64,000 bases of DNA from a phage. Positions 4,701 to 63,600 of this stretch are shown in pieces. How positions within the stretch are numbered: the first letter of the stretch is position 1; every line of letters starts with the position of its first letter. Location: the sequence record PZ000613.1; one strand, written 5' to 3'. A program made the translations under genes and the position numbers. The notes below the pieces were generated by a model. That model worked only from the letters and a program-made list of their open reading frames with translations, was not told where the DNA came from and did not search any database.

Positions 4701-4981
4701 GTTTGAGCAATAAGTTGCATTAAACGAGCATCTTGATCTTTAAAGTCCTGCTTCAAAGCTTCAATGTCTTGCTGCATCAGGACACCCTGTTGATACAGAC
4801 GTTCTACTTCAGCGATCAGATCATCAATTGTACCAAACTTAGACTCAGCTAGTAATGCCCAATATTTAGAATCAGCTGCATATTCTGCTGCCTGCTTGTA
4901 AGCTCCGATAGAGCCTTCTGTAGCACCAAACTGCCCAACGTTATTCACTGCATCAGGTGCTTGGTTATTATAAACGATCAT
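1754..4981 (-). CDS. tail fibre / receptor-binding protein (1075 aa)
   Basis: Long ORF after the capsid genes; Gly-X-Y-like stretch (GIPQGAPGKDG), poly-Gly hinge, tail-collar-like motif (LLNRADYPDLWAY ... TTFRVPDRNG), Ser/Gly/Asn-rich beta-type composition, coiled-coil C-terminus. Confidence 0.7.
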   Translation of the reverse strand: MIVYNNQAPDAVNNVGQFGATEGSIGAYKQAAEYAADSKYWALLAESKFGTIDDLIAEVERLYQQGVLMQQDIEALKQDFKDQDARLMQLIAQTNAAVSDAQNALALMDQKLIEVQERLDILLGMSVDVTTLPPGNEASGHFDPNTGVISLGIPQGAPGKDGTVTDLDNAPTGVPVLGDVGFYVDKDDNTVHKTSLENIANLIPSVRSISVNGGPAESGEVSLTLDKSTVGLSNVENVASYSKEVVDNKVDGFIKTYSSKAEADADAVNRQAGETVLVWENTQYVFYKVAADKILDLSKTEPRVVTVNSRIPDSSGNIDITIPTGNPSLYLGELLMFPYDPTRPISYPGILPADGRLVSKDLASDLGASLVSGQLPVVSETEWQAGAKQYYSWGKLADGLTDADSTNYINIRLPDWTGGEAIRSPSLTGDTSYDGKPIDQKPYIVTVNGISPNDITGNVNITAANIGALAKSGGIMDGNLVLNKTIALRRIKDNDTQVNMVSRSGSDSSVFGDHLARTVVASSETPIFSKPGGDYKFYTEDNKPTNVDVGAAGIDVNGVNSDIKTFTQKVTFQQPVTVADAVGDYDAVTLRQLRNQGGGGGGPTMNGISNFNIGDFRLADSRAFIHPNDVTSDGQLLNRADYPDLWAYAQLLTPISDSDWLASPSKRGRYSTGNGTTTFRVPDRNGVQSGSINELYGRGDGGNSGSNGDVFENGAPNITGTIDFVSVGGAFAYVGGSISKSALQPSGETKNPPKITEGDVGGNRSSNLSLNASINNPAYGRSSRVRPDNFVGVWVIRAKGAFIAANTTWSVINSDGTRPSDGTPVTGGNVVSEYKVGVESEGSAEFRMVGTIGSSYSARIGVYNKTSSKGTTFDFTEAGNIETPRGRVLVKDDYGVGVQGGTVLPDSNYNQFITDSDGNSSWAAANGGGIQTSYAVNRICQFWVSLSGSAYIRSNTLNNNPKELKSNLPWTTLQNAGTSDANVKDIGDDLDLNVALSNIKSLEFKNFTYKNDEKKSPRRGVIAQQAEQVDPQYVHSAEKSGVMTLDTNPLLLDALAAIKLLSAKVEELEKQLAAK

Positions 4982-4990
4982 ATTATCTCC

Positions 4991-5844: not shown

Positions 5845-6357
5845 TTAAGCAGGTGTTACACCAGTAAAAGTGCATGTTGCATTGATGGACGGGTCAGCTG
5901 TCAAACTTGCTTGAACAGTAACTTCGCCACTTGCAGCAGCATCTAAGGTTAACGCACCAGCGGCGCTTACTGTACCAGCTTCTGTAGGAGTTACAACAAA
6001 CGTGTAATCCGCAGCAGCAGAATTAGTTACAGTAAACATGGTAGTGAAATTAGTGGAGGAACCACCAGTTTTACCCGTAATTGGACCCTTAGCTACAATA
6101 GTAGGAGCAGGAGCAACAATTTCAGAAATGGTTGCTGTACCAGAAACACCTTCTAAAGTTGCAGTAATGGATACATCAGTGGATTGAGACGCACTCGGAG
6201 CAGTATACAAACCCGACTGAGTGATAGAACCACCTCCTGTCACTGACCAAGTAAAGCCAGTTGTTTCGGTAGAACCATCACTTTTCTCCGCGCTTGCAGT
6301 GAACTGCCGAGTAGCCCCTGTCTCTAGACTAGCTAAAGACGCAGGGCTAACAGTCAC
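5845..6357 (-). CDS. Ig-like (Big_2-type) domain ORF, probably expressed as a C-terminal extension of the capsid protein by -1 frameshift
   Basis: Thr/Ser/Gly/Ala-rich beta-strand sequence typical of bacterial Ig-like domains (VTVSPASLASLETGATRQFTA ... ITATLEGVSGTATI); no AUG or RBS of its own (GTG only); frame is -1 relative to the capsid ORF and open across its stop codon. Confidence 0.6.
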   Translation of the reverse strand: MTVSPASLASLETGATRQFTASAEKSDGSTETTGFTWSVTGGGSITQSGLYTAPSASQSTDVSITATLEGVSGTATISEIVAPAPTIVAKGPITGKTGGSSTNFTTMFTVTNSAAADYTFVVTPTEAGTVSAAGALTLDAAASGEVTVQASLTADPSINATCTFTGVTPA

Positions 6358-11102: not shown

Positions 11103-12644
11103 TTAGTAGCTCTGATTCCATCTGCTTACGTTTGCCTCATACAGAGAAGCACTTCCGTAGCTAACGTCATGCTTAGAGCGACCACGATGTGTAACAGAGC
11201 ACGCTGAATAGCGCATTGCATCCATTAAGTCATCATGTTCTTTAATAATCTTACCAACCTTACGGTGATATCTAGCTTTCTCTTCGAATAGCTTAGCGTT
11301 AGCGGCTGTGTTAAAGACTTTAAAGCGTCCACTCATCATTCTTTCTCGGATATCTGTGATTCCGGGTTCTACAAAGAAGTTCTTTTTACCATCCATTCCA
11401 ATTTTGTTGTAGAAGGTCTCACTCTGCACATTAACTCCTGCATTCTTATAGAATTGAGCAACAGATGAGCCACTGCCTTTCTCAATATTGTCCGCATCAT
11501 GCGGTAGGATGACAGGAATCCACTGACCACGACCATTAATAGCTGGAGCATGATACACTGGAGTAAAGCCACCTTCTTTATATGAGTCGTAAACATAGAT
11601 AGTATCCGTGTTTGCATCGTAAGCTGTCCAAACAGCAGCAGTTGGGTGATCAATACCAATATCAATTGCACAGACACGTTTCCACGTATCAGGAATTTCG
11701 AATGGTTCACATTTAATTGTGTCATCCGATACATCATATATCAAACCACTTCCTAACAATGGCATACCTTTCGAACGCATCTCTAATTGCCACGCTGGAA
11801 TACCTTCAGTCATATCTTTTATATCTTGGTCAGTGATATGTCCACCTAGGTCTGCATGAGCATCCCACCAAGAGGCATTCTGGAAATATAGAGAACCTGT
11901 GTTCTCATCCCCTTCACCTTTCATAAATTTATCTACCAGTTCAGTTAAACCGTTCTCTGGTGTAGCTGTAATTGTAACTAGACCTTTAGTTGTGAGTGTA
12001 CGTGTGACGCACTGTGCGAATATAGCCATAGACTCGTATGGATCTTCTTCGTCTAACCAAATGTAGTCAACTGTTGCACCCATCAATGTGTGTTCACCCT
12101 GTTGGGTTGAACGGAATTCTAATGTACTTAAACCGTCAAACTCTCCTCTTTCATTTTGATGTTTGATTTGTACGATTTGAAGTTTGTTACCATCTCGCTC
12201 TATCGTGTCAATGACGATAGCATCACGAGGAATGACACCTGTCCCTAATAAATTTGTATCCTTTCCGATAGGTGTACCAAACAATTCCTTTTGCAATACT
12301 TTCCTTGTGGAATCCCCTGTAATACCAACTGCCCATGCTAAGATAGGTCTTTTAAATTTATATCCTGTCCACCAAGTTGGGTAGCGACCTGTGACATGAC
12401 AAGCAAACTCGTATGCCTCGCTGTAAGATTTACCAACACGGTTCGCTGCACACAAGAATCTAAAGCGATGCTTCAATCCTGCTGCATAAAATTTCTTTTG
12501 GAAGTCATACGCCTTGAAAGACAAAATCCTATTATACTTCCTCCATTGGTCACGCTCTTTCAACATATTCAATAGTGCTTTCTTTTCCTCTACACTAAGA
12601 TTGTTACCAGTTAGAGCTTCATAAATTTGTTTATCTAATGACAT
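11103..12644 (-). CDS. terminase large subunit (513 aa)
   Basis: ATPase P-loop-like segment (ANRVGKS), Walker-B-like IWLDEED, and RNase-H-like nuclease motif (AIDIGIDHPTAAVW) in the C-terminal half. Confidence 0.8.
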   Translation of the reverse strand: MSLDKQIYEALTGNNLSVEEKKALLNMLKERDQWRKYNRILSFKAYDFQKKFYAAGLKHRFRFLCAANRVGKSYSEAYEFACHVTGRYPTWWTGYKFKRPILAWAVGITGDSTRKVLQKELFGTPIGKDTNLLGTGVIPRDAIVIDTIERDGNKLQIVQIKHQNERGEFDGLSTLEFRSTQQGEHTLMGATVDYIWLDEEDPYESMAIFAQCVTRTLTTKGLVTITATPENGLTELVDKFMKGEGDENTGSLYFQNASWWDAHADLGGHITDQDIKDMTEGIPAWQLEMRSKGMPLLGSGLIYDVSDDTIKCEPFEIPDTWKRVCAIDIGIDHPTAAVWTAYDANTDTIYVYDSYKEGGFTPVYHAPAINGRGQWIPVILPHDADNIEKGSGSSVAQFYKNAGVNVQSETFYNKIGMDGKKNFFVEPGITDIRERMMSGRFKVFNTAANAKLFEEKARYHRKVGKIIKEHDDLMDAMRYSACSVTHRGRSKHDVSYGSASLYEANVSRWNQSY

Positions 12645-14640: not shown

Positions 14641-15088
14641 CCCCGTGCCTACTCCCCGTAATTATTTCCCCGTGTATACCATCCTATTCATTAACTACCC
14701 GTTAAATTAGTTCCCCTTTAGAGAGTGAGAGAAAGGCCAGCACTGTACAGGCACTACCATAACAGGTCTAATAATACCCATAAGCAATAGCCCACATCCC
14801 CCATAGTTTGAATGTAAATAGTTTCAATAGTTGTTATTATGAGTGCAATAATGATATATGTATTAATTAAGTGGAAAGATTATGTTTGATGTTTATTATA
14901 TTCTTTTTATTCTTTTCTTTTTCAGCGTTCTTTTATTCTTTTTCTTTTAACGTTTGATGCTTGAGTAATGCTATTAATAGTTAACTAATTATTTAAGTGG
15001 TATATTATTACCGCACTATCTGGCTATGTTTCCCCGTGGTCTGTTCTGCGGTTGTGTGTTCCCCGTTTGTCCTGGTATGTTGGTCTGC
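14641..15088. repeat. array of seven (T)CCCCGT / CCCGT(A/T) repeats in the divergent control region
   Basis: Copies at about 14641, 14654, 14668, 14698, 15024, 15054, 15082; the first three are 13-14 bp apart, the last three 28-30 bp apart. Confidence 0.5.
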
Positions 15089-15212
15089 TACCCGTAGGAT
15101 TAGTGTTATAAAGTAACAATATCCAGTAAGCTGATGCTCTGAGTATGGGAAGTTTAGTAAATTAAATTTCTTTAGTTTTCAGTAAGATGCAAGAAAGTTA
15201 GAAAATAAATGG

Positions 15213-15240
15213 TTGACAGTCTTTTCCTTTATTATATAGT
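15213..15240 (+). promoter_or_regulatory. sigma70-type promoter TTGACA-16-TATAGT
   Basis: Consensus -35 hexamer, 16-nt spacer, TATAGT -10, AT-rich upstream; about 40 nt before the first plus-strand gene. Confidence 0.55.
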
Positions 15241-15278
15241 CGGTGACAGTTGATTGAATTTATATAAGGGATAAAGAA

Positions 15279-15770
15279 ATGACTAAAACGATGCAGATAG
15301 TTAATCTGGCAAGTTATGCAATCGTTGCAGCGATCGGTGTTAGTGCACTGGTAACATCTTTTTCTGATAAGGCTATCGCTGGCCCTACTCCTACAACTGA
15401 TGCGGCTAGTGTCTTTATTAGTTCCATCAATAAGGGTTGGCTGATTTGTAACGGTGCAGATAGTGACACCAATAAGATCGTTTTAAAGGTTAAATTCAGC
15501 AACGTTTCCCGTGATGGTCTGGTCGTTAGTACCAAAACACTAGATAATCAGTCTAACAGTGATCTAGTTCTCAAGCGCACCGATAATGATGCGGATATGG
15601 TTACATTTGGCACTGTACAACGTTACAACCATGCGAAAGCTGTTACAAATCTGGTTAGTTATGGTCCGGTTAATGAGTCGATGATCGCCACCACGGTTTA
15701 CAATAACGCTGATAACGCTGTTTATACTGTTCACGTTAATTTAGCCAACTGTATTAAGGCTAGTAAATAA
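15279..15770 (+). CDS. secreted/periplasmic protein with N-terminal signal peptide (163 aa)
   Basis: RBS plus hydrophobic N-terminus (IVNLASYAIVAAIGVSALVTSFS); first gene of the plus-strand block. Confidence 0.5.
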   Translation: MTKTMQIVNLASYAIVAAIGVSALVTSFSDKAIAGPTPTTDAASVFISSINKGWLICNGADSDTNKIVLKVKFSNVSRDGLVVSTKTLDNQSNSDLVLKRTDNDADMVTFGTVQRYNHAKAVTNLVSYGPVNESMIATTVYNNADNAVYTVHVNLANCIKASK

Positions 15771-15797
15771 ATAACCTATTTTCAGGAGTGTAAAAAC

Positions 15798-16064
15798 ATG
15801 ACTATCAAAGAAGTTAAATTGTCTAGCGGCTTTTCTGTTTTTGTTGGCGATACCGCTATCACGTTCAATCTGCGTCATGGTCAGCTAATGTTGCCCGTTG
15901 TTACTTTCTGCGTCATGGATTTTAAAAAGGCTAAAAATTGGTTATCTGCTGTAGGGATTGATATTAACCGCGATGACTTCCGTTCAATTTATTTTGACGG
16001 TGGGTTGTCACTGGCAAATCTGCTAAATCATGGGCTTAATGGGGATGATACTAATGGGAAATGA
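15798..16064 (+). CDS. hypothetical protein (88 aa)
   Basis: ORF with CAGGAG RBS. Confidence 0.45.
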   Translation: MTIKEVKLSSGFSVFVGDTAITFNLRHGQLMLPVVTFCVMDFKKAKNWLSAVGIDINRDDFRSIYFDGGLSLANLLNHGLNGDDTNGK

Positions 16065-16317
16065 AACTATTGCGATAATTGATACGCATAATTACGGTGG
16101 CGTTACGTTGTCTTTCGATGAACCTATCGACGCTGGTTATTTGTCTTTTCTTTCTAAGGGTGAGATACAAACTATCCGTTTTCCTATTGTCTGCTTAGTG
16201 CAAGATTATCTAACTATAGGTAAGTATCTTGCCCAACGTGGGATTTTGTTGTCGCTGGAAGAAGTGGAACATATCAGCGTAGCATTTTTTAGCGAGGGTA
16301 ACAATGATGATTCATGA
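16030..16317 (+). CDS. hypothetical protein (start uncertain, 16030 or 16054)
   Basis: ORF overlapping the end of the previous gene; several in-frame ATGs. Confidence 0.35.
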   Translation: MGLMGMILMGNETIAIIDTHNYGGVTLSFDEPIDAGYLSFLSKGEIQTIRFPIVCLVQDYLTIGKYLAQRGILLSLEEVEHISVAFFSEGNNDDS

Positions 16318-16411
16318 TTATTTCTGGCGTTGCTTGTTCGTCGTTACAGTGGCGTTATTCGTCGCTGATATGCTTTATTCTTACATCCTTTAATTAAAGA
16401 GGTTTATATCT

Positions 16412-16777
16412 ATGCGGTTCATTAGATTCGTCGTTAAAATGGTTGTGGGCTTTTTCCTTGTCGTTCTCTTATTGGGTGTTCTCCTATCGTCTATGGGTAG
16501 CGTTAAAGCTGCAACCTTTTCCCCTGATACGGTGGAAGGTTTACAGTGCACCTATTTGATAGAAAACTATTCGACCGGTAAAAAGTCACCTAAGGTTATT
16601 ATTTTGCATTTAAATGATTTTGATCAAGTGCATTCATATGATAAAACCATTCAACTGGTAAATGAAACTACCGGTAAACAAATCACGGTCAATCACTTGA
16701 TGCGCTCATCGTTGACGCTCTTTGATGAGTCCATGAATGAAATGGCATCCGGTAACGGTCAATGTGTAAATCCATAG
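16412..16777 (+). CDS. membrane/secreted protein (121 aa)
   Basis: RBS AAAGAGG; N-terminal hydrophobic segment (MVVGFFLVVLLLGVLLSS). Confidence 0.45.
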   Translation: MRFIRFVVKMVVGFFLVVLLLGVLLSSMGSVKAATFSPDTVEGLQCTYLIENYSTGKKSPKVIILHLNDFDQVHSYDKTIQLVNETTGKQITVNHLMRSSLTLFDESMNEMASGNGQCVNP

Positions 16778-17038
16778 GCTTAATCTTTATCCTGTATTGT
16801 GCCGTAGTCATGCCTATGGTCATAATCTATCTGATTCTCTAATCCTTCCTGTAAGCCTCCCAGTGAGGCTTTTCTCTTTTATAAGGTGATTGTATTCCTT
16901 ACTCCCCTTTAGCTCGTTGTGATGCGTTATAGGCCGCTTATTATTGCTTTACAGGCTGTTTCCTATGATGTATCGCGTGCGCCCGTTCCTCTATCTCTCC
17001 CTACAGTGAAAAAGTTTAAAATATTTTGCTTTACCCTA

Positions 17039-17066
17039 TTGCATAGCCATAAAACTGGCGTATACT
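17039..17066 (+). promoter_or_regulatory. sigma70-type promoter TTGCAT-16-TATACT
   Basis: Near-consensus -35 and -10 hexamers within the ORF-poor 16780-18560 region. Confidence 0.45.
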
Positions 17067-17165
17067 GATTTCTATCGGGTACGATGTAAAACATACAAGG
17101 CAAGGAAACTTGCCCCGCTCTTTAAGAGTCAGGCTAGAAAGTGAAAAATATTCTTAAAAAGAGTA

Positions 17166-17194
17166 TTGACACCAGAAAAAGCCTGATATATAGT
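17166..17194 (+). promoter_or_regulatory. strong sigma70-type promoter TTGACA-17-TATAGT with A-rich UP element
   Basis: Upstream AAAAAGAGTATTGACA closely resembles classic strong phage early promoters. Confidence 0.6.
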
Positions 17195-17310
17195 GAGCAT
17201 AGTCAGCGATGACGTGAAATATCCCGCTCTTTAATAATTTATCATCTTGCCCTTTCGCAAAGATTCACGCGAGATAAGGGAAAAGAATAAAAGAAGATGA
17301 TAAAAAAGGG

Positions 17311-17339
17311 TTGCAAACGTGGTTAAGGTAGTTCATACT
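17311..17339 (+). promoter_or_regulatory. sigma70-type promoter TTGCAA-17-CATACT with A-rich UP element
   Basis: -35/-10 hexamers at optimal spacing, A-tract upstream. Confidence 0.5.
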
Positions 17340-17612
17340 AACCACAAGTTAGCAAAACATCGCTAACTAGTTCCCAAATCAACGTATCACGGGAAAGGTA
17401 GCACATAGTGCAGTGAGTAGTTCAGGTGTAGGCGGCCTGTTAATGAATAAGTAAGCCTTTAATGTGACAGTGATTAGCAGACACTCTAAAAGGCTAACGC
17501 TCTTTAACAATATGAATCATAAGTTAAGCCTCACCGCTTAATCTTCAATCAAATAAAGCTGATTGATATATCCTCCCAATAGCGGGAACGACGAAAAAGA
17601 TTAAAAAAGCGG

Positions 17613-17641
17613 TTGACAGCTAAAACAACATGATTCATAAT
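17613..17641 (+). promoter_or_regulatory. strong sigma70-type promoter TTGACA-17-CATAAT with A-rich UP element
   Basis: Consensus -35, 17-nt spacer, CATAAT -10, upstream GAAAAAGATTAAAAAAGC. Confidence 0.6.
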
Positions 17642-18561
17642 GAGCACACTTAAGCAAATCACCGCTTAAGGAAAGCGTAACAACGGCTAACGGTTGCATA
17701 GTGTGAGAAAGCACACTGATAGATTTACCGCTCTTTAATAATTTAAACATTCTCCTATATCGGTTGAATATGTTAGATGATAATAACCATCGGATAACAT
17801 ACCAGATAAAACGGTGTAAGACTCTCTAAACTATCAGAGAAAAACAGCCTTACAATCCCTTACTGGAAACGTCACCACTGATAAACGGATTCATTGAGTG
17901 CACGCAAAGACTTAAGCTAATCGCCCACGGTTAAGGGTAGCGGCGGTCATCGCTAACAAGGCGCTACAGTGAAAGAAGTTAATCAGGGTAGGCAAGCCCG
18001 AAGAAATAACGCTCAATTGAGAGCGGCGGGGAGTGGTTAAAAAGTGGCAAATTGCTATTTAACAATGAGGTTTAGTGTGAACGTTTATGATGTGAACGGC
18101 TTGAGATTCATCTTATGATGAAAGTACATAGTCGGTTTATGTAGTAAACTTGCCGAAAGATATAAAACGTCGGAACATTAGACGGTCAATGACTCTTTCG
18201 CAATAGTATCCCGTAGTGGGCGATGACTGGCGATTGAGAGTTGATATAAAAGGATAGGCGAGAGCGAAAGCAAAGTAAACGATATTGCCGACGGTTACAA
18301 TAACGTAACTAATTAGAGTCGGACGCACTGCCTTATTGTGATGATTGATCATCGCTATCAGGTCGGCTTCGTTTATAGCGGCTAATTAAAGATACCAGAT
18401 GAAACATCACGGATAAGGGGGCGGCAAGGTTAACTCCTGATAAGACCGCCCCGCTTACCTATAACTACTTACAATGAGTGGTTATAGTTAAGTTAATAGT
18501 GACTTAAACAAGCTCATAGAGAGCGGGGCAATAGCGCCCTTACAATTGAAAGGTGAATATT

Positions 18562-19461
18562 ATGGCTAAAATCTTTAATCTGGTAAAAGAATCTGGCTTT
18601 AACGCACTGGCTAACAACATCCGTAGCAATAACGCGGCTATCAAACAAGATGTTTCTAATTTTCTGTTAGGGCACTTACAGCACTTTCGTAGCAACGGCA
18701 AGAAGTTAGATGTATTGCAATCGGCGGTAGATTTTCTGTTAACCGAACGTTTCCGCGATATGGACGTGATCGCCACTGCAATCACTTTCTTAACACCTAT
18801 CAAATATAACACCGAGGCGGCGAACGGTCGTAAAAAGTGGATTAATCTGGAAGGTGAGGCGAAAGCGAAAGAAGATGCGAAAGAAGCGCAGATCAAGGCG
18901 AAAATGGAACAAAACCGCGCTCGCTGGTCGAATGCTTTCGAGAATTTTGCTTTAGGTCGTGAAATTGAAGTGGATAACCCTAACTTCTTTAAAGGCTGCA
19001 ATGACAACGTGGCGGCCCACCTTCAAATACCGGCGAAAAACAAGGAAGATTTTAATCAGGATATTTACGCTTTAGTTGAACGCTTGAATGCAATCCGTAT
19101 CGAAGCCAAATTGCTGGCTGATGAGCGCAACGGCGCTACCAGTGATAACACTATTGCCTTAAGTGAAGAAGTGGGCAAGGTTAAAAAATCTTTCGACACA
19201 CTGATCAAGAAAGTCACGGCCTCAACGGTAGCGATCTCCGATGACTATCTGATGAACGCATCAAGCAAAGAACTGGAGTCACTTGATTCATACGCCGATG
19301 AAATGGAAAAGGCTGTTACAGCTATGCAAGAGAAGTTAGAAAGTCTGCGCGGTCGTATCTCCTCAACGGTTGCTACCCGTACCGAACAAGCGGCGAAAGC
19401 AGAAGAGGAAGAAGTATTGCGTAAAGCGGCTGAAATTATGGCGGCACGTCAGGCGGCATAA
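18562..19461 (+). CDS. hypothetical early protein, Lys/Glu/Ala-rich helical (300 aa)
   Basis: ATG with AAAGGTGA RBS; first sizable ORF after the promoter array; terminator follows. Confidence 0.55.
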   Translation: MAKIFNLVKESGFNALANNIRSNNAAIKQDVSNFLLGHLQHFRSNGKKLDVLQSAVDFLLTERFRDMDVIATAITFLTPIKYNTEAANGRKKWINLEGEAKAKEDAKEAQIKAKMEQNRARWSNAFENFALGREIEVDNPNFFKGCNDNVAAHLQIPAKNKEDFNQDIYALVERLNAIRIEAKLLADERNGATSDNTIALSEEVGKVKKSFDTLIKKVTASTVAISDDYLMNASSKELESLDSYADEMEKAVTAMQEKLESLRGRISSTVATRTEQAAKAEEEEVLRKAAEIMAARQAA

Positions 19462-19483
19462 GTAAGACAATTCGAATAAACAT

Positions 19484-19519
19484 AAGGCGCTATCTTAACG
19501 GGTAGCGCCTTTTCTTTTA
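19484..19519 (+). terminator. rho-independent terminator
   Basis: AGGCGCTATC-loop-GGTAGCGCCT hairpin followed by TTTTCTTTT. Confidence 0.55.
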
Positions 19520-19563
19520 TCAGTGCATTGATTTAGTGCATTAATCAAAGAATCTAATCAAAG

Positions 19564-19791
19564 GTGACGATCATGTTAATTACACATACCACGATCTATA
19601 GGAATCTTGTCAACGGTCAACATTACCGCCTATCTAAAAAGTATGGCGTTGAATGTAAATGTGTTATTACCGGTGAATGGTATCCGTCGCCAATGAAAAT
19701 TGAAACGTTGGAACGTGAAGCGATCAGTTATATTATCACGCAAGAAACAACGCTAGGCCGTATCTTAAGAAAGTTGGGATTAAGAAAATGA
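19564..19791 (+). CDS. hypothetical protein (75 aa)
   Basis: ORF with RBS AAAGGTGA. Confidence 0.45.
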   Translation: MTIMLITHTTIYRNLVNGQHYRLSKKYGVECKCVITGEWYPSPMKIETLEREAISYIITQETTLGRILRKLGLRK

Positions 19792-20012
19792 TATTCAGTA
19801 GTAATTTTGGCAAGTGTCCTATTTGTGAGAAACATCGCAGCACGGGGAATCATCGCAAATGTAGTAAGATACTACAGCGCCAACGCGATAACAGTCATTG
19901 GGATACTGTACACACTAACCAGCGTAAAGAAGAAGTTAGAAAAATGGCTGTTAAAGCGTCGTTTGCTCAATCCACACGTATTGAACACATTCAAAGGTAT
20001 CAAGCATTATGA
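19788..20012 (+). CDS. hypothetical Cys-containing small protein (74 aa)
   Basis: ATGA overlap with the upstream gene; CPICEKH motif. An alternative frame 19807-20019 also exists. Confidence 0.35.
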   Translation: MIFSSNFGKCPICEKHRSTGNHRKCSKILQRQRDNSHWDTVHTNQRKEEVRKMAVKASFAQSTRIEHIQRYQAL

Positions 20013-20218
20013 TCACTAATATTTCAGAGTTTAAGAAAGCACCTTCCCGCTTGTTAGGCCGTCGTGTTGTATACCTTTACAGCAACAAAGGTAAATGTAC
20101 AACCGGACGAATTACAACGGTAAGCAGTGCCAATAAGAAACTACTAAAATTATGCGTAGCTATGGATGACGGTACAATCCTTCTACGTAGTTGGAAATCA
20201 TTTAGTTTACTTGATTAA
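20009..20218 (+). CDS. hypothetical protein (69 aa)
   Basis: ATGA start/stop overlap with the previous ORF. Confidence 0.4.
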   Translation: MITNISEFKKAPSRLLGRRVVYLYSNKGKCTTGRITTVSSANKKLLKLCVAMDDGTILLRSWKSFSLLD

Positions 20219-20287
20219 GTTATTTGTTCAAGCCTATCTCCTTGATGGGCTTGCCCGATATAACTTATCACTGAAAGGAATAAGATT

Positions 20288-20731
20288 GTGGCTAAATCTA
20301 AAATCAGCATGAAGGGCGGGCGTTGTTTTTCTATCTCTGAACTGGAGAAAGAGAAACCAAAGGCAACCAATCACGTTAGCAAGCGTAGTTTAAAACGTCG
20401 TGCTGTAAAGGCTGTGGCTGAATCTCATATTCCTTCCAGTGTGGCAAAACGTGTAGGCCATCGTGTCCATCGTGCTGATGCGTTGTTGTTAGCTGATCAT
20501 AAACGTTCTCTGTTAAAGAGCGGGGGAGCTAAAACAGAAGAAGAGAAGAAGTTAGAAATCTTCTGTAATGGTCGCACTCGAGGTAAACAGAAGTTTAAGG
20601 GGAGCACGAAAGACCCTCAGGCATTCCCTAAGACAAGCCAGTGTGCACCTGATGTTTTCTACGCAGATAGTAAACACAAGTGGGGCGTTGAGAAATACAT
20701 TGACCCCATCAAAGAGGCAAGGGTTAAGTAG
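20288..20731 (+). CDS. hypothetical basic protein (147 aa, GTG start)
   Basis: Lys/Arg-rich ORF with GTG start after AAAGGAA. Confidence 0.4.
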   Translation: MAKSKISMKGGRCFSISELEKEKPKATNHVSKRSLKRRAVKAVAESHIPSSVAKRVGHRVHRADALLLADHKRSLLKSGGAKTEEEKKLEIFCNGRTRGKQKFKGSTKDPQAFPKTSQCAPDVFYADSKHKWGVEKYIDPIKEARVK

Positions 20732-20892
20732 TAGGAATATAGCCCCCCCTCTTTTAGTACTATGACGCTCTTTCTGTAGCGTCGTGCCCTCTCCCCATTT
20801 GAAGCTTCCGCATAGCCGCCTTTGAGCGGCTTTTTGCGTTGCTGTAAGTGCATTTGCGAGTGTATTTATAGCAACGGTCATGTGTTGCTTTC

Positions 20893-20926
20893 AGGTTTGC
20901 CCCGGCTACGGCTGGGGCTTTTTTAT
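20893..20926 (+). terminator. rho-independent terminator
   Basis: GCCCCGGC-TACG-GCTGGGGC hairpin followed by TTTTTTA; a second hairpin plus T5 lies at about 20816-20840. Confidence 0.55.
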
Positions 20927-20973
20927 GCCCGTAAAACAGGAGGTATCAAGTTCTGATAACAACGGCCCAGCTA

Positions 20974-21363
20974 ATGTTGACATTGACTATTTATTATGAG
21001 GCAGGGAATCAGCCAACCGCATGTAAGGCTTTAGTTGCGGATACCGTAATAAATAGAATGGCACAACGAAAACTGACCGCTGAACAGGTGATAAGACAAA
21101 AGAACCAGTTTGAGTGGATTCCGGTACTATTAAAACAGGAGAAACCTTATAAACGTTATGTAAAGCTGATTCGTGATAAAAATCCGATGACTGAGCAAGC
21201 CATTGGAGAAAGCGAGCGACTTGCTAAACGTGCCCTTAAGAAGAATTATGTTCCTCTGTATAGTGGGACTTACTTTCAGAGTAAGAGCGAAGGGGTGCCA
21301 AAATGGTATGCCAATCCTATGTATTGTGGTGATTTAGTGTTCGATAATAGCTCTAGGGAATAA
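20974..21363 (+). CDS. SleB-like cell-wall hydrolase (candidate endolysin or virion lysin)
   Basis: Motifs IYYEAGNQ ... VADTVINRMAQ ... QKNQFEW match the SleB/Hydrolase_2 signature; start codon uncertain (weak RBS at the ATG, AGGAGG further upstream). Confidence 0.5.
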   Translation: MLTLTIYYEAGNQPTACKALVADTVINRMAQRKLTAEQVIRQKNQFEWIPVLLKQEKPYKRYVKLIRDKNPMTEQAIGESERLAKRALKKNYVPLYSGTYFQSKSEGVPKWYANPMYCGDLVFDNSSRE

Positions 21364-60605: not shown

Positions 60606-63600
60606 ACTCCTTAGGTCGAACTCTTACACGGAGTCTCGATTGACGCTTACTGCGTTCAAGCTTCTCTGACAATGAGCCACGTTTAATCTTCGGCTTCCCT
60701 TCGTCATTAAACTTCTCCAAGAACTGCAAGTACTCAGTACGATTGGTTGTCTTGTAAGAAGGAATCTTAATATCAGGGTTCTCTTCAATTACACGTCTCA
60801 TCTTCGCTACATCATCCCTACCAAGCAATTTACTCTTAGCCTGTTCAGCTGTAGAACCAAAGATCTTCTCCAGTGCTCTGGATTTGTTACCACCTGCGGA
60901 AGAAGCACCAAGTTTAGCAATGGCAGAGTAATCATCAGCACTAAACCAAGCTACTGGATTATCACCATACTTCTTCTTGTTTTCAGCAGCGGTCTGCAAT
61001 GCACGTACAAAGCGACGGTTGTTACCAGCCTTATCTGCACCATGAACCCTGTCTAAAACTTCAGCCACACTGGCTAACTCATCCAAACTCTTCCCATTCA
61101 AGAAAGCTTTCTCTGCTTTATCAGCAAAGGCTTCTTCCTGCTGTTTAATACTTTCCAAGATATCAGAACTTGCTTGAGATCTTTCATCATCAGGCAGAGC
61201 AGAACGAATCTTCTCCATCTCCATCTCTTCCTCTTGCAGTTTCTTAATATCAGAGTCAACCTTCTGAGCCTCCTCAATAGCCTTCCTAGTATCCGCATCC
61301 AAGTTATCAAGCTTACCTTCAGTATCTCCAGTAACCTTAGCAATCTCCTTCTCGATAGGAGTCATTGATTCATACTTCTTAGCGAACTTCTCAACATCAG
61401 CTTCGATACGAGAACGAGCATTCTGATGTTCAGTAGGAGTCATAGGCTTCTCAAGAAGTGCATAACGGTTATCCATATAGGAACCAGCAAACGCTTCAGC
61501 ATCCTCTCTAGATATGCCCTTATCTTCCATAGTACGCATCAGGCGGCGATGAATGTCATCACGTTGACGTTGTACTGCCATAAGGTCATTCTCACGTTCT
61601 TGGGCCGCTTTAAGCTCTTCGCTGCGCTTAACTCTCTTGTCCACATCAAACTTACGGTTCATTTCTTCCGCTTGCTCATACATCTTATTCCACTTAGCCT
61701 GACGAGCATCTTCCTCTGCATCAGTTAAACGACGCTGACGATCAAGGTAGTCTGACTCGGCGTTATGGATACGTTCAATGTAACTACGGAACTTCTCTGG
61801 AGGAACTGGAGAGTTCTTATCGTGGTGAGCAGCCAACTGTTTCAATGTACGAGATTCCTGAGCCTCACGAACAGGTTTAGGTAAACCTTCCATCATCTTC
61901 TCAATCTCACTCTTCTGAGCTGCAATAGCCTCTAGAGTTTTACGTTCATTCTCAACAGCAGCCTTAGCATCTGAACGAGCCTGAGCCTTTTTCCTGAGGG
62001 TAGCAAGACGTTCTTCACGAGCCTGTAAGTGCTTAGCAGCAGCTTCGTACTGAGAGTTCTTGTTAGCTTTGTTGAAGGCATTCACTTCTCTGTTGTAGGT
62101 GTTAATAAACCCATCCCAAATATCCTTCATCTGACCAACTTCCAAAGCCTCTTCCCTACCAGCCTTCTCTGAAGATTTAAACTTCCCATCTACAAAGTCA
62201 TTCATCAGCTTACGCATAGCATCTTTCTGAGCAGGACGTAAAGGTTCTGAATCAATCAAAGTATCAATCTCAGACTGAAGCTCTTTCTTCTGGTCAACCA
62301 GTTTAGGAGCATTCTTGTTGTCGAAAGCTTTGTTCTCTTCTAGAGCTTGTTGATACAATCTATCAAACTCATCCTCACGCTGCTTCTGATATAACCTTTC
62401 AGCACGACGTTTTAAACTATCCAAGTTAGTTACGTTCCCACCTAAACCCTTCTCTTCAGCACGTAATGCCTTAGTAGCAATGTCTTCTGGCAGACCACGT
62501 TCCTTAACCCATTCAGCAAAATTAGTTCGTACAGTGTTGTTCTTAGCAGTAGCAATACCTTGCTGAGAAGCTAGCTGGTTACGAGCCATCTCTTCATGAC
62601 GTTCAGTGTTGATAGCATTATCTTCCTGACGAATACGACGCATCAATTCCTTAGGATCACCCTTATAAGCCAAGAAGTTTTCAGCAGTAGCTTTAGCCTT
62701 AGCAGCCTTAGAGTACAGAGAACGAGCAAAACGTTCTGCACGATCTTTAGTAGCCTGACGAGCAGCACTAGACATAGCAGCTAAACGTTCTACACCACTT
62801 GCCGGTTTAACGTCCTGTACAGCTTCCTTAGGAGCTTTAGGGGCACGGGCAGGTAATGGCTCAGCTTTGACTGTTGGTTCCTCTACGGTTGGTTCTGGAG
62901 CCTGTGCGGCCTCTTCTTGAGCACGTTGCTGCTCCATTGCACGACGCTCCTCTAAAGGATTGCGAGCAGGGAGAGGTTCAGCCTGTGGAGCTTGTTCGAC
63001 CGGAGCTTCTTGAGCAGCCAATGCCTCTTCTTCAGCGCGACGCTGTTCAGCCTGACGGATAGCACGTCTTTGCGCAACTAAATCACGAGCTGTAAGAGGG
63101 GTTTCTTGAGGAGCAGAAGAAGGAGGATTTTCTTCCGTCACAGTACTAGAAGAAGGCTCCCGAACCGGTTCGGTTTCCACGTCATTTTGCGTCTTAAATT
63201 TAATGTCATCAACAACTGGTTCTTCTTCCATCTTAGCACGAGCTTCAGCAGCAGTAGACTTAGCACGAGCAACTTCCAAATCACCACGAGCAAGAGAGCG
63301 GATAGCTTCGCTGTTAGCTTCTTGTTGCTTAACACGTTGAGAACGAGCACGCTGAGAAGAGAAGCGATTCAGGGCATACTTAGCAGCACCGAGGGTGTTC
63401 ATTACTAGACTAGGTGAAGAAGCCTCACGGAAGCCATCATCAGTCAGGGAAGTCCAACCACGATCTTGGTTACTCATGAACTTAGCTGTATTGTTCAGAG
63501 TGTAAGCATCTTGAATAGGATTAAAACCTTCAGGCATACCTTTCAGTTTCTTCAACCCACCGATAGCTTTCTTCATCTCTGGAGAAACATTATCAGCCAT

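Follow-up and report, generated by a model that had tools for sequence, protein, structure and literature searches.

Sequences indistinguishable from rrn-type boxA follow each of four early promoters of a phiEco32-like phage, ahead of a conserved structured leader RNA

Introduction

The boxA element of the Escherichia coli ribosomal RNA (rrn) operons is a processive antitermination signal, an RNA element bound by NusB and NusE (ribosomal protein S10), which lies in a boxB-boxA-boxC arrangement and is served by a complex of NusA, NusB, NusE, NusG, SuhB and S4 (rrnTAC). Host Nus factors are also used by the nut sites of phage lambda, where the loop of boxB is bound by the phage N protein. The activity to be resisted is that of Rho, the host silencer of foreign and untranslated transcription. 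To our knowledge, Nus-factor antitermination in phages is textbook matter only for the lambdoid phages, in which it depends on N. Here we describe a 64-kb stretch of DNA (PZ000613.1, called the window throughout) from a phiEco32-like podovirus of E. coli (Kuravirus, Gordonclarkvirinae), in which a gene-free spacer of 1.8 kb (16778-18561) carries four early promoters, each followed by a sequence that is indistinguishable from boxA.

Several described systems bear on such an arrangement. A boxA in the leader of the CRISPR (clustered regularly interspaced short palindromic repeats) arrays of Salmonella and many other bacteria needs no N to shield the long untranslated transcripts against Rho (Stringer et al. 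2020, PMC7665894). Nus factors were reported to be able to block Rho without N, and boxA sites in 5' untranslated regions (5' UTRs) were predicted to be widespread (PMC5725501). Phage HK022's put element, like the sites described here as they are proposed to act, is a factor-independent RNA element close to the promoter of an early phage transcript, and it yields a termination-resistant polymerase, but it is a folded RNA of ~70 nt that binds the polymerase directly and has no boxA (2025 Rho review). The phage strategies listed in that review are N, Q, Psu and put. In our literature search no paper was found that links phiEco32, Kuravirus or T5 to boxA or antitermination, with the limit that Savalia 2008 and Pavlova 2012 were not covered, so that a prior mention there is possible. 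While boxA and Nus-dependent antitermination are already well known, an rrn-type boxA array on a phiEco32-like phage is a new instance.

Results and Discussion

A boxA copy after each of four early promoters

The motif CCGCTCTTTAA was found exactly at positions 17115, 17224 and 17728, and with one mismatch, as ACGCTCTTTAA, at 17497, in all cases on the plus strand; a search allowing one mismatch returned five matches against 1.18 expected. All four copies (17117, 17226, 17499 and 17730, plus strand) are perfect for GYTCTTTAANA, the gamma-proteobacterial boxA consensus, which was built on mutagenesis as well as on the rrn and suhB sites of E. coli (Baniulyte et al. 2017, PMC5725501). Over both strands of the window this consensus has six perfect matches, against 0.51 expected and with none of 100 shuffles reaching six, and four of the six share one strand and a stretch of 624 nt. 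The complete phiEco32 genome has all four of its GCTCTTTAA-type matches in the homologous spacer, every one of them on the transcribed strand (Markov expectation, 0.63 per genome); besides these it holds only two GTTCTTTAATA sites, which run antisense to late genes. The motif, which the preliminary description of this DNA had singled out as recurrent, is thus more frequent than expected in both sequences. The remaining two matches in the window are antisense to coding open reading frames (ORFs): the one at 11237-11247 (plus strand) to the terminase large-subunit ORF 11103-12644, and the one at 20511-20521 (minus strand) to ORF 20288-20731. The first is also present in phiEco32 (3647, minus strand) and the second in NJ01 (position 5960), and both are probably chance occurrences retained by coding constraint.

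The rrnB leader and spacer were compared directly with the phage copies. In the leader of E. coli K-12 rrnB, a hairpin GCCGC...GCGGC is followed by AC and then by TGCTCTTTAACAATTTATCAGAC. The third copy, boxA-3 (17499..17511, GCTCTTTAACAAT), shares all 13 nt with the boxA of the rrnB leader, and boxA-2 with its 3' extension (17226..17246, GCTCTTTAATAATTTATCATC) agrees with the rrnB leader boxA GCTCTTTAACAATTTATCAGA at 20 of the first 21 positions, the stretch GCTCTTTAATAATTTATCA holding the single difference. The other two, boxA-1 (17117..17127, GCTCTTTAAGA) and boxA-4 (17730..17740, GCTCTTTAATA), are consensus matches; all four are on the plus strand. In most relatives copy 1 reads GCTCTTTAAAAATCAGG, close to the boxA GCTCTTTAAAAATCTGG of the rrnB 16S-23S spacer (spacer boxA sequence, TGCTCTTTAAAAATCTGG) and shared with it over GCTCTTTAAAAATC. 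The boxA-1 of the present phage is a variant with G at +10 and +12: positions 17117-17129 read GCTCTTTAAGAGTC instead of the GCTCTTTAAAAATC of the relatives, self-folding is possible (CUCUU/AAGAG), and this copy may be the weakest of the four sites. A BLAST search of 17205-17260 against 5,426 E. coli genomes gave no extended host homology and no rrn match, the latter because the exact runs of 9+9 nt are too short for seeding. Judged by its sequence, the motif is indistinguishable from boxA.

Four sigma70-type promoters were found in the spacer, each with an A/T-rich tract upstream and one copy of the motif on its 3' side, and the earlier statement that a copy follows each promoter held, with coordinates correct to 1-2 nt. 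Two of the promoters were read from the sequence: P_A (17039..17066; TTGCAT at 17039 and TATACT at 17061, 16-nt spacer, UP-like A/T-rich tract at 17008-17027) and P_C (17311..17339; TTGCAA at 17311 and CATACT at 17334, 17-nt spacer, A-rich tract at 17280-17309). The other two match the sigma70 hexamers at 11 of 12 positions and are identical to published promoters of phage SU10: P_B (17166..17194; TTGACA at 17166 and TATAGT at 17189, 17-nt spacer, UP-like tract at 17142-17165) to the early promoter ttgacaccgaaaacagcctgatatatagt, and P_D (17613..17641; TTGACA at 17613 and CATAAT at 17636, 17-nt spacer, UP-like tract at 17592-17610) to ttgacagcgaaaacaacatgattcataat. All four are on the plus strand. 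The SU10 genome paper places three sigma70 early promoters, 'like phiEco32', in the corresponding spacer. Among the relatives the P_A module has TTGACA-16-TAATAT or TATAAT promoters, the P_C module varies, and P_D is kept in 15/15 phages. The distances from the starts predicted from sequence to the motif are, in promoter order, 44, 25, 153 and 82 nt, in line with the 25-160 nt first estimated, and this range of 25-153 nt brackets the distances for rrnB P2 and P1 as measured (about 32 and 151 nt).

Conservation of the array in related phages

The 2-kb stretch around the array matches 97 phage records at 80-94% identity, and the spacers of the window phage and of 14 further phages from the genera Kuravirus and Suseptimavirus were compared. 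Between three and five perfect boxA matches were present in the spacer of each relative, always on the transcribed strand, so that the recurrence first noticed in one phage extends to its relatives. A total of 61 instances (53 unique) were collected from the 15 phages, all on the plus strand. The 35 nt upstream of these instances fall into 25 unrelated clusters while the motif is intact, indicating that promoter-boxA modules have been reshuffled many times. The instances were gathered by the consensus itself, and their conservation is informative at the positions not fixed by the search pattern. Position 2 is C in every instance; in the flanks, strong and rrn-like conservation is seen for C at -1, A at +12 and T at +13; and the N of the consensus (position 10) is free (0.42 bits). 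The block around copy 4, ATTTACCGCTCTTTAAYAATTTAAAC, is invariant in 14 phages with the consensus N position as its sole exception. The boxA core is under purifying selection, and its degenerate position is free.

These patterns bear on whether the motif is an RNA signal at all. It might act as DNA, as an operator, an origin iteron or the upstream region of the next promoter, or be a non-functional remnant of host rrn sequence, and a long non-coding, promoter-dense region could indeed hold an origin; the motif, like UP elements, is A/T-rich. We regard both ideas as highly improbable. The orientation is the same in 61/61 instances, the spacing from motif to next promoter is variable (39, 75 and 104 nt, with no promoter beyond copy 4), the similarity to rrn is confined to about 21 nt, BLAST gave no extended host homology, and a decaying remnant is excluded by a motif that stays invariant in 25 shuffled contexts.

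Proposed function of the boxA array

From rrn operons, CRISPR arrays and phage lambda we infer a mechanism that we consider likely, namely that the copies are rrn-type, N-independent boxA sites which bind NusB/S10 and make early transcription Rho-resistant across the leader and into the early genes. Each boxA, on leaving RNA polymerase, would bind the host NusB-NusE(S10) dimer; NusG, NusA, SuhB and possibly S4 would then join to give a termination-resistant and probably faster polymerase, with no phage N-like protein being needed. A polymerase modified in this way would survive Rho across the ribosome-free leader of 0.8-1.5 kb and probably beyond it, into the rightward gene cluster of ~40 kb. 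As there is one boxA per promoter, every initiating polymerase would be modified, whichever promoter fired. The preliminary description had offered two kinds of explanation, a shared RNA signal for processing, pausing or attenuation and the binding site of a regulator. The idea of a shared RNA signal or host-regulator site fits a boxA sequence, whereas processing, pausing and attenuation do not, rrn-type boxA being an antitermination signal.

The array heads a long, ribosome-free, structured RNA, the very setting where boxA is used by rrn operons and CRISPR arrays. Between the promoters and position 18562 there is no ORF, the longest open stretch in 17070-18561 being 41 codons (plus strand), while the early promoter at 15213, which lacks a boxA, has a leader of only 66 nt; a need for boxA would follow from this difference. 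The likeness to E. coli rrn covers the boxA core with its flanks (13/13 and 20/21 positions of the rrnB leader), a hairpin 5' of boxA, strong tandem promoters with A/T-rich tracts, the start-to-boxA distances and the long untranslated structured RNA. The phage differs in having four promoter-boxA modules, where rrn has two promoters sharing one boxA, in lacking boxC, and in carrying, in a virulent genome, an 820-nt mRNA leader unrelated to rRNA that is followed by protein-coding genes. The closest functional analogue is the boxA of CRISPR arrays, an rrn-type leader boxA which, as is proposed here, acts without N on a long untranslated transcript, although there a single copy on the host chromosome precedes a repeat array, whereas the phage has a tandem array ahead of an mRNA with a structured leader.

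The host's own rrn-type boxA, in one copy per early promoter, is carried by a virulent phage family (98 records). If functional, the array would provide lytic phages with a simple and portable escape from Rho, in addition to N, Q, Psu and put, and would explain how phiEco32-type early transcripts cross an untranslated region of 1-1.5 kb; phages that are candidates for therapy would be predicted to depend on host nusB, nusE and suhB.

Several points weigh against antitermination by the array. The binding and the function of the copies rest on analogy throughout. Ribosomal RNA has been reported to be intrinsically Rho-resistant, with the Nus factors acting mainly in RNA folding (PMC5725501), and boxA can promote Rho termination, as in suhB and hisG (PMC5725501; 2025 Rho review). 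As the leader is structured and rather G-rich (C 18%, G 24%), Rho may act on it poorly, and the argument that boxA is needed against Rho would then lose force. The predicted accessibility of the copies does not clearly exceed that of controls, either co-transcriptionally (0.32-0.83 against 0.50) or locally (0.39-0.55 against 0.43). Copy 1 of this phage deviates at +12 and can self-pair, and no boxC-like GU-rich element (TGTGTGGG in rrnB) was seen 3' of any of the four copies. Finally, Salmonella phage 7-11, of another family, has tandem sigma70 promoters with A/T-rich tracts and a similarly long non-coding leader (~1.1 kb) before gp151, and no boxA consensus match was found in that leader region; its authors described the antitermination strategy of 7-11 as unknown.

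Hairpins upstream of boxA

In 24 of the 25 upstream contexts a hairpin ends 1-12 nt 5' of boxA, with a stability that exceeds that of 40-mers from other parts of the spacers (p = 0.003) and that of shuffles (p = 0.0003). The GGCAAG-GAAA-CTTGCC hairpin reported earlier ahead of the first copy is present at 17099..17114; it has a GNRA tetraloop, ends 2 nt 5' of boxA-1 in a boxB-like position and reads GGCAA-GAAA-TTGCC in relatives. A second GNRA loop occurs in GUCA-GCGA-UGAC (17202..17213), at the 5' end of the P_B transcript and 12 nt 5' of boxA-2, which in phiEco32 is TTCA-GCGA-TGAA, with the stem changed on both sides. Ahead of boxA-3, a possible long-loop hairpin AGCCTTT...AAAGGCT (17454..17495) of weak predicted stability ends 3 nt 5' of the motif. 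The hairpin AGTGTG-AGAAAG-CACACT (17700..17717), in a boxB-like position 12 nt 5' of boxA-4, shows compensatory changes in 3/6 pairs, with 100% of cells paired, and its stem exists in four versions (AGTGTG/CACACT, AGCGTG/CACGCT, AACGTG/CACGTT and GAGGTG/CACCTC). All four hairpins are on the plus strand. Across the contexts the hairpins share neither sequence nor loop, which argues against a protein reader of the lambda N type.

Alternatively, the motif, or hairpin and motif together, might be bound by a protein of the phage, for instance a processing enzyme, a nuclease or an antiterminator resembling N, in place of host Nus factors alone. Lambda pairs boxA with a phage protein, most early proteins of the present phage have no known function, and two of the hairpins have GNRA-type loops, a fold that the lambda boxB loop resembles. 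We nevertheless judge such a factor improbable, since the hairpins stand 5' and not 3' of boxA and comprise about 25 unrelated sequences with differing loops, a poor fit to a sequence-specific hairpin reader; moreover, the conserved part is exactly the host consensus, free position included, and the protein would have to come from the very transcripts on which it acts. Searches of Pfam and PHROGs revealed no antiterminator-like or N-like domain in the nine flanking early ORFs, the only ORFs scanned.

A lambda-type nut site was likewise considered and rejected, as the hairpins precede boxA and are not conserved and as no N-like domain was seen in the ORFs scanned. The array shares with nutL and nutR the nature of a phage early-transcript RNA signal containing boxA, as well as the C at -1 (CGCTCTT...). 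The boxA of lambda, however, is the short form CGCTCTTA, which fails GYTCTTTAANA, and its boxB lies 3' of boxA (CGCTCTTA...GCCCTGAARAAGGGC) with a conserved loop, while the phage hairpin lies 5' and is not conserved in sequence.

A conserved structured leader RNA

Between the last boxA and the first start codon lies an untranslated leader RNA of 820 nt (17741..18561, plus strand), which is conserved and highly structured. Its identity per 20 nt across the 15 phages is 0.85-0.99, equal to that of the following coding sequence. In an RNAalifold consensus from 14 phages, 35 helices comprise 239 pairs, and 98.7% of cells are paired. Compensatory changes were counted in 72 pairs, against 32 +/- 3.4 in column shuffles, none of 500 reaching 72; this control ignores the relatedness of the phages and does not give a probability. 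When partners were slid by 1-3 columns, only 5-11 compensatory pairs were left, a comparison that is partly favoured in that the structure was derived from the same alignment. The minimum free energy of the leader is 5.5 standard deviations below that of shuffles (z-score -5.5), and many invariant G-U pairs point to the plus strand as the folded one. The size of the covariation excess and its pattern per helix are strong evidence for a structured RNA. A search of Rfam 15 with 15000-21000 (E up to 10) returned nothing in the leader and only weak, sub-threshold matches elsewhere. The leader RNA appears to be undescribed so far and, as an RNA object, may be more novel than the boxA sites; being large, covarying and unclassified, it is worth structural study.

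Homology to the 1.1-kb leader of phage 7-11 was not supported: nhmmer gave only marginal colinear matches (E = 0.62 and 5.8), and a covariance model of the domain 17869-17995 found nothing significant in the comparison with the 7-11 leader, even with filters off.

The preliminary description had also pointed to GAGAGCGG elements downstream, partly complementary to the motif. They are present at 18019 and 18519 (a third copy lies at 63294) and are formally complementary to CCGCTCTT, but they are not partners of the motif. Both leader copies form the 3' arms of local hairpins with compensatory changes, on the plus strand. The first is held in CGCTC-AATTGA-GAGCG (18010..18025, helix 14), in which CGCTC (18010-18014) pairs with GAGCG (18021-18025) and a U-A pair is replaced by C-G in 5/14 phages. 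The second is held in GCTC-ATAGA-GAGC (18512..18524, helix 34), in which GCTC (18512-18515) pairs with GAGC (18521-18524) and U-A is replaced by C-G in one phage, PAS59. An anti-boxA pairing was therefore rejected.

A boxA look-alike, GCTATTTAACAAT, was observed at 18054-18066 (plus strand), agreeing with the rrnB boxA at 12/13 positions (C4 to A). It is invariant in 14/14 phages, and the predicted fold has it base-paired within helices 15 and 16 (unpaired probability 0.20). It may represent a fifth copy that is dead or sequestered, or else have arisen by coincidence.

In the consensus fold the leader as a whole is closed by pairing of 17723-17733 with 18548-18558. In this closing helix (helix 2) ATTTACC (17723-17729), just 5' of boxA-4, pairs with GGTGAAT (18552-18558), which overlies the Shine-Dalgarno sequence; the helix is invariant and hence has no covariation support, although GGTAAAT in phage TH34 keeps the pairing. 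The arrangement is reminiscent both of the pre-rRNA leader-spacer helix and of the way in which the Shine-Dalgarno sequence is occluded at suhB.

The latter resemblance suggests a negative boxA of the suhB type, in which Nus binding would occlude the ribosome-binding site of the first early gene and provoke Rho termination, as a throttle or a timer. In suhB, too, a consensus boxA lies in the 5' UTR of a coding transcript, where it represses translation and sets off termination by Rho (PMC5725501), and the pairing over the Shine-Dalgarno sequence predicted here, together with its retention in TH34, would accord with such a role. This explanation seems to us quite unlikely. The closing helix, as said, does not covary, and a 7-bp match in a 30-nt target has a chance of a few percent by rough estimate. 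Sites of the suhB type, which repress, are no more than about 50 nt from the start codon, and the phage sites are 830-1445 nt (0.8-1.4 kb) upstream, where read-through would be expected; copies 1-3 would also be left unexplained.

A broader version of the antitermination proposal, which we put forward only as a speculation of rather low probability, is that the whole early unit imitates an rRNA operon, with tandem UP-element promoters, hairpin plus boxA, and a large folding RNA. The complex would then be both an anti-Rho or speed device and an RNA chaperone, which would hold boxA at the polymerase and aid folding of the leader and its closure through the helix between the boxA-4 flank and the Shine-Dalgarno sequence, a helix likened in this proposal to the leader-spacer helix of pre-rRNA. 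The leader would itself be a large phage RNA of a new class, with a role of its own, as a translational gate or timer for the early genes or as a host-factor sponge, and the multi-boxA RNA might drain Nus factors from host ribosome synthesis.

A further repeated sequence was noted in the leader, where TTACAAT occurs in four copies (17846, 18291, 18466 and 18538, plus strand) against 0.4 expected (z about 6.7). TACAAT is a -10-like hexamer, and a promoter annotated in the SU7 record overlaps the last copy. The k-mer enrichment analysis of the leader was otherwise unpersuasive: TTACAAT alone stood out, GATAA and GGA not being enriched.

boxA copies in other phages

Scans of viral contigs for close boxA pairs returned mostly generic, coding or giant-virus repeats. 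The T5-like Proteus phages PM135 and Stubb, however, have four promoter-boxA modules in the pre-early A1/A2 region, in which TTGACA-17-TATAAT is followed within 10-16 nt by GCTCTTTAAAA or GCTCTTTAACAAT; in one record the boxA positions are 6053, 6228, 6947 and 7034. Phage T5 itself (NC_005859) has one perfect boxA (4978-4988, minus strand), on the transcribed strand of the pre-early (first-step-transfer) region, preceded by GGCGG-GAAGTTTA-CCGCC-AC, which is the rrnB layout.

The T5-like modules bear on an alternative reading of the array as a Nus-factor decoy. In it, abundant RNA with multiple boxA copies would soak up NusB, S10 and SuhB and cripple host rRNA transcription and ribosome assembly, as a means of host shut-off. 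Such a decoy would be served by the presence of several boxA sites on each transcript, made from near-consensus promoters that have UP-like tracts, by copies of the high-affinity rrn type and not of the weaker lambda type, and by a copy number held at 3-5 in all relatives. On the other hand, the multiplicity is already explained by one boxA per promoter, and in the T5-like Proteus phages a single boxA stands 10-16 nt after promoters that directly precede genes, which looks like action in cis. We consider the decoy unlikely; it is compatible with boxA-dependent antitermination, the explanation that we prefer.

Paired rrn-like boxA sequences were also seen in IMG/VR contigs (L033/L040, L025/L036 and L027), for example GCTCTTTAACAATTTG twice, 120 nt apart; contig L033 had no match among deposited phages. 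In a 180-kb viral contig, one rrn-like boxA lies directly 3' of a tRNA gene.

Genes flanking the spacer

The spacer separates a short early operon from a long rightward gene block, which begins with the ATG at 18562 and ends at about 59.4 kb (~40 kb in the same direction). The corresponding spacer of phiEco32 has gene 125 on one side and gene 124 on the other, and all genes from 124 down to 27 share one direction. The first gene of the block, with its Shine-Dalgarno sequence AAGGTG (18550-18555), occupies 18550..19461 (plus strand) and encodes a protein of 299 amino acids, a homologue of phi32_124; by tblastn its relatives were found only in 98 records of Gordonclarkvirinae type, from Escherichia and Shigella phages. 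On the other side, the short early operon (15213-16871) has a consensus promoter at 15213 (TTGACA-16-TATAGT), which is followed by four small ORFs (15279-16777) and by a terminator-like hairpin (16853-16871). Two of its products, of 88 and 121 amino acids, carry the PHROG labels 'polymerase' and 'terminase', respectively, which look like annotation artefacts.

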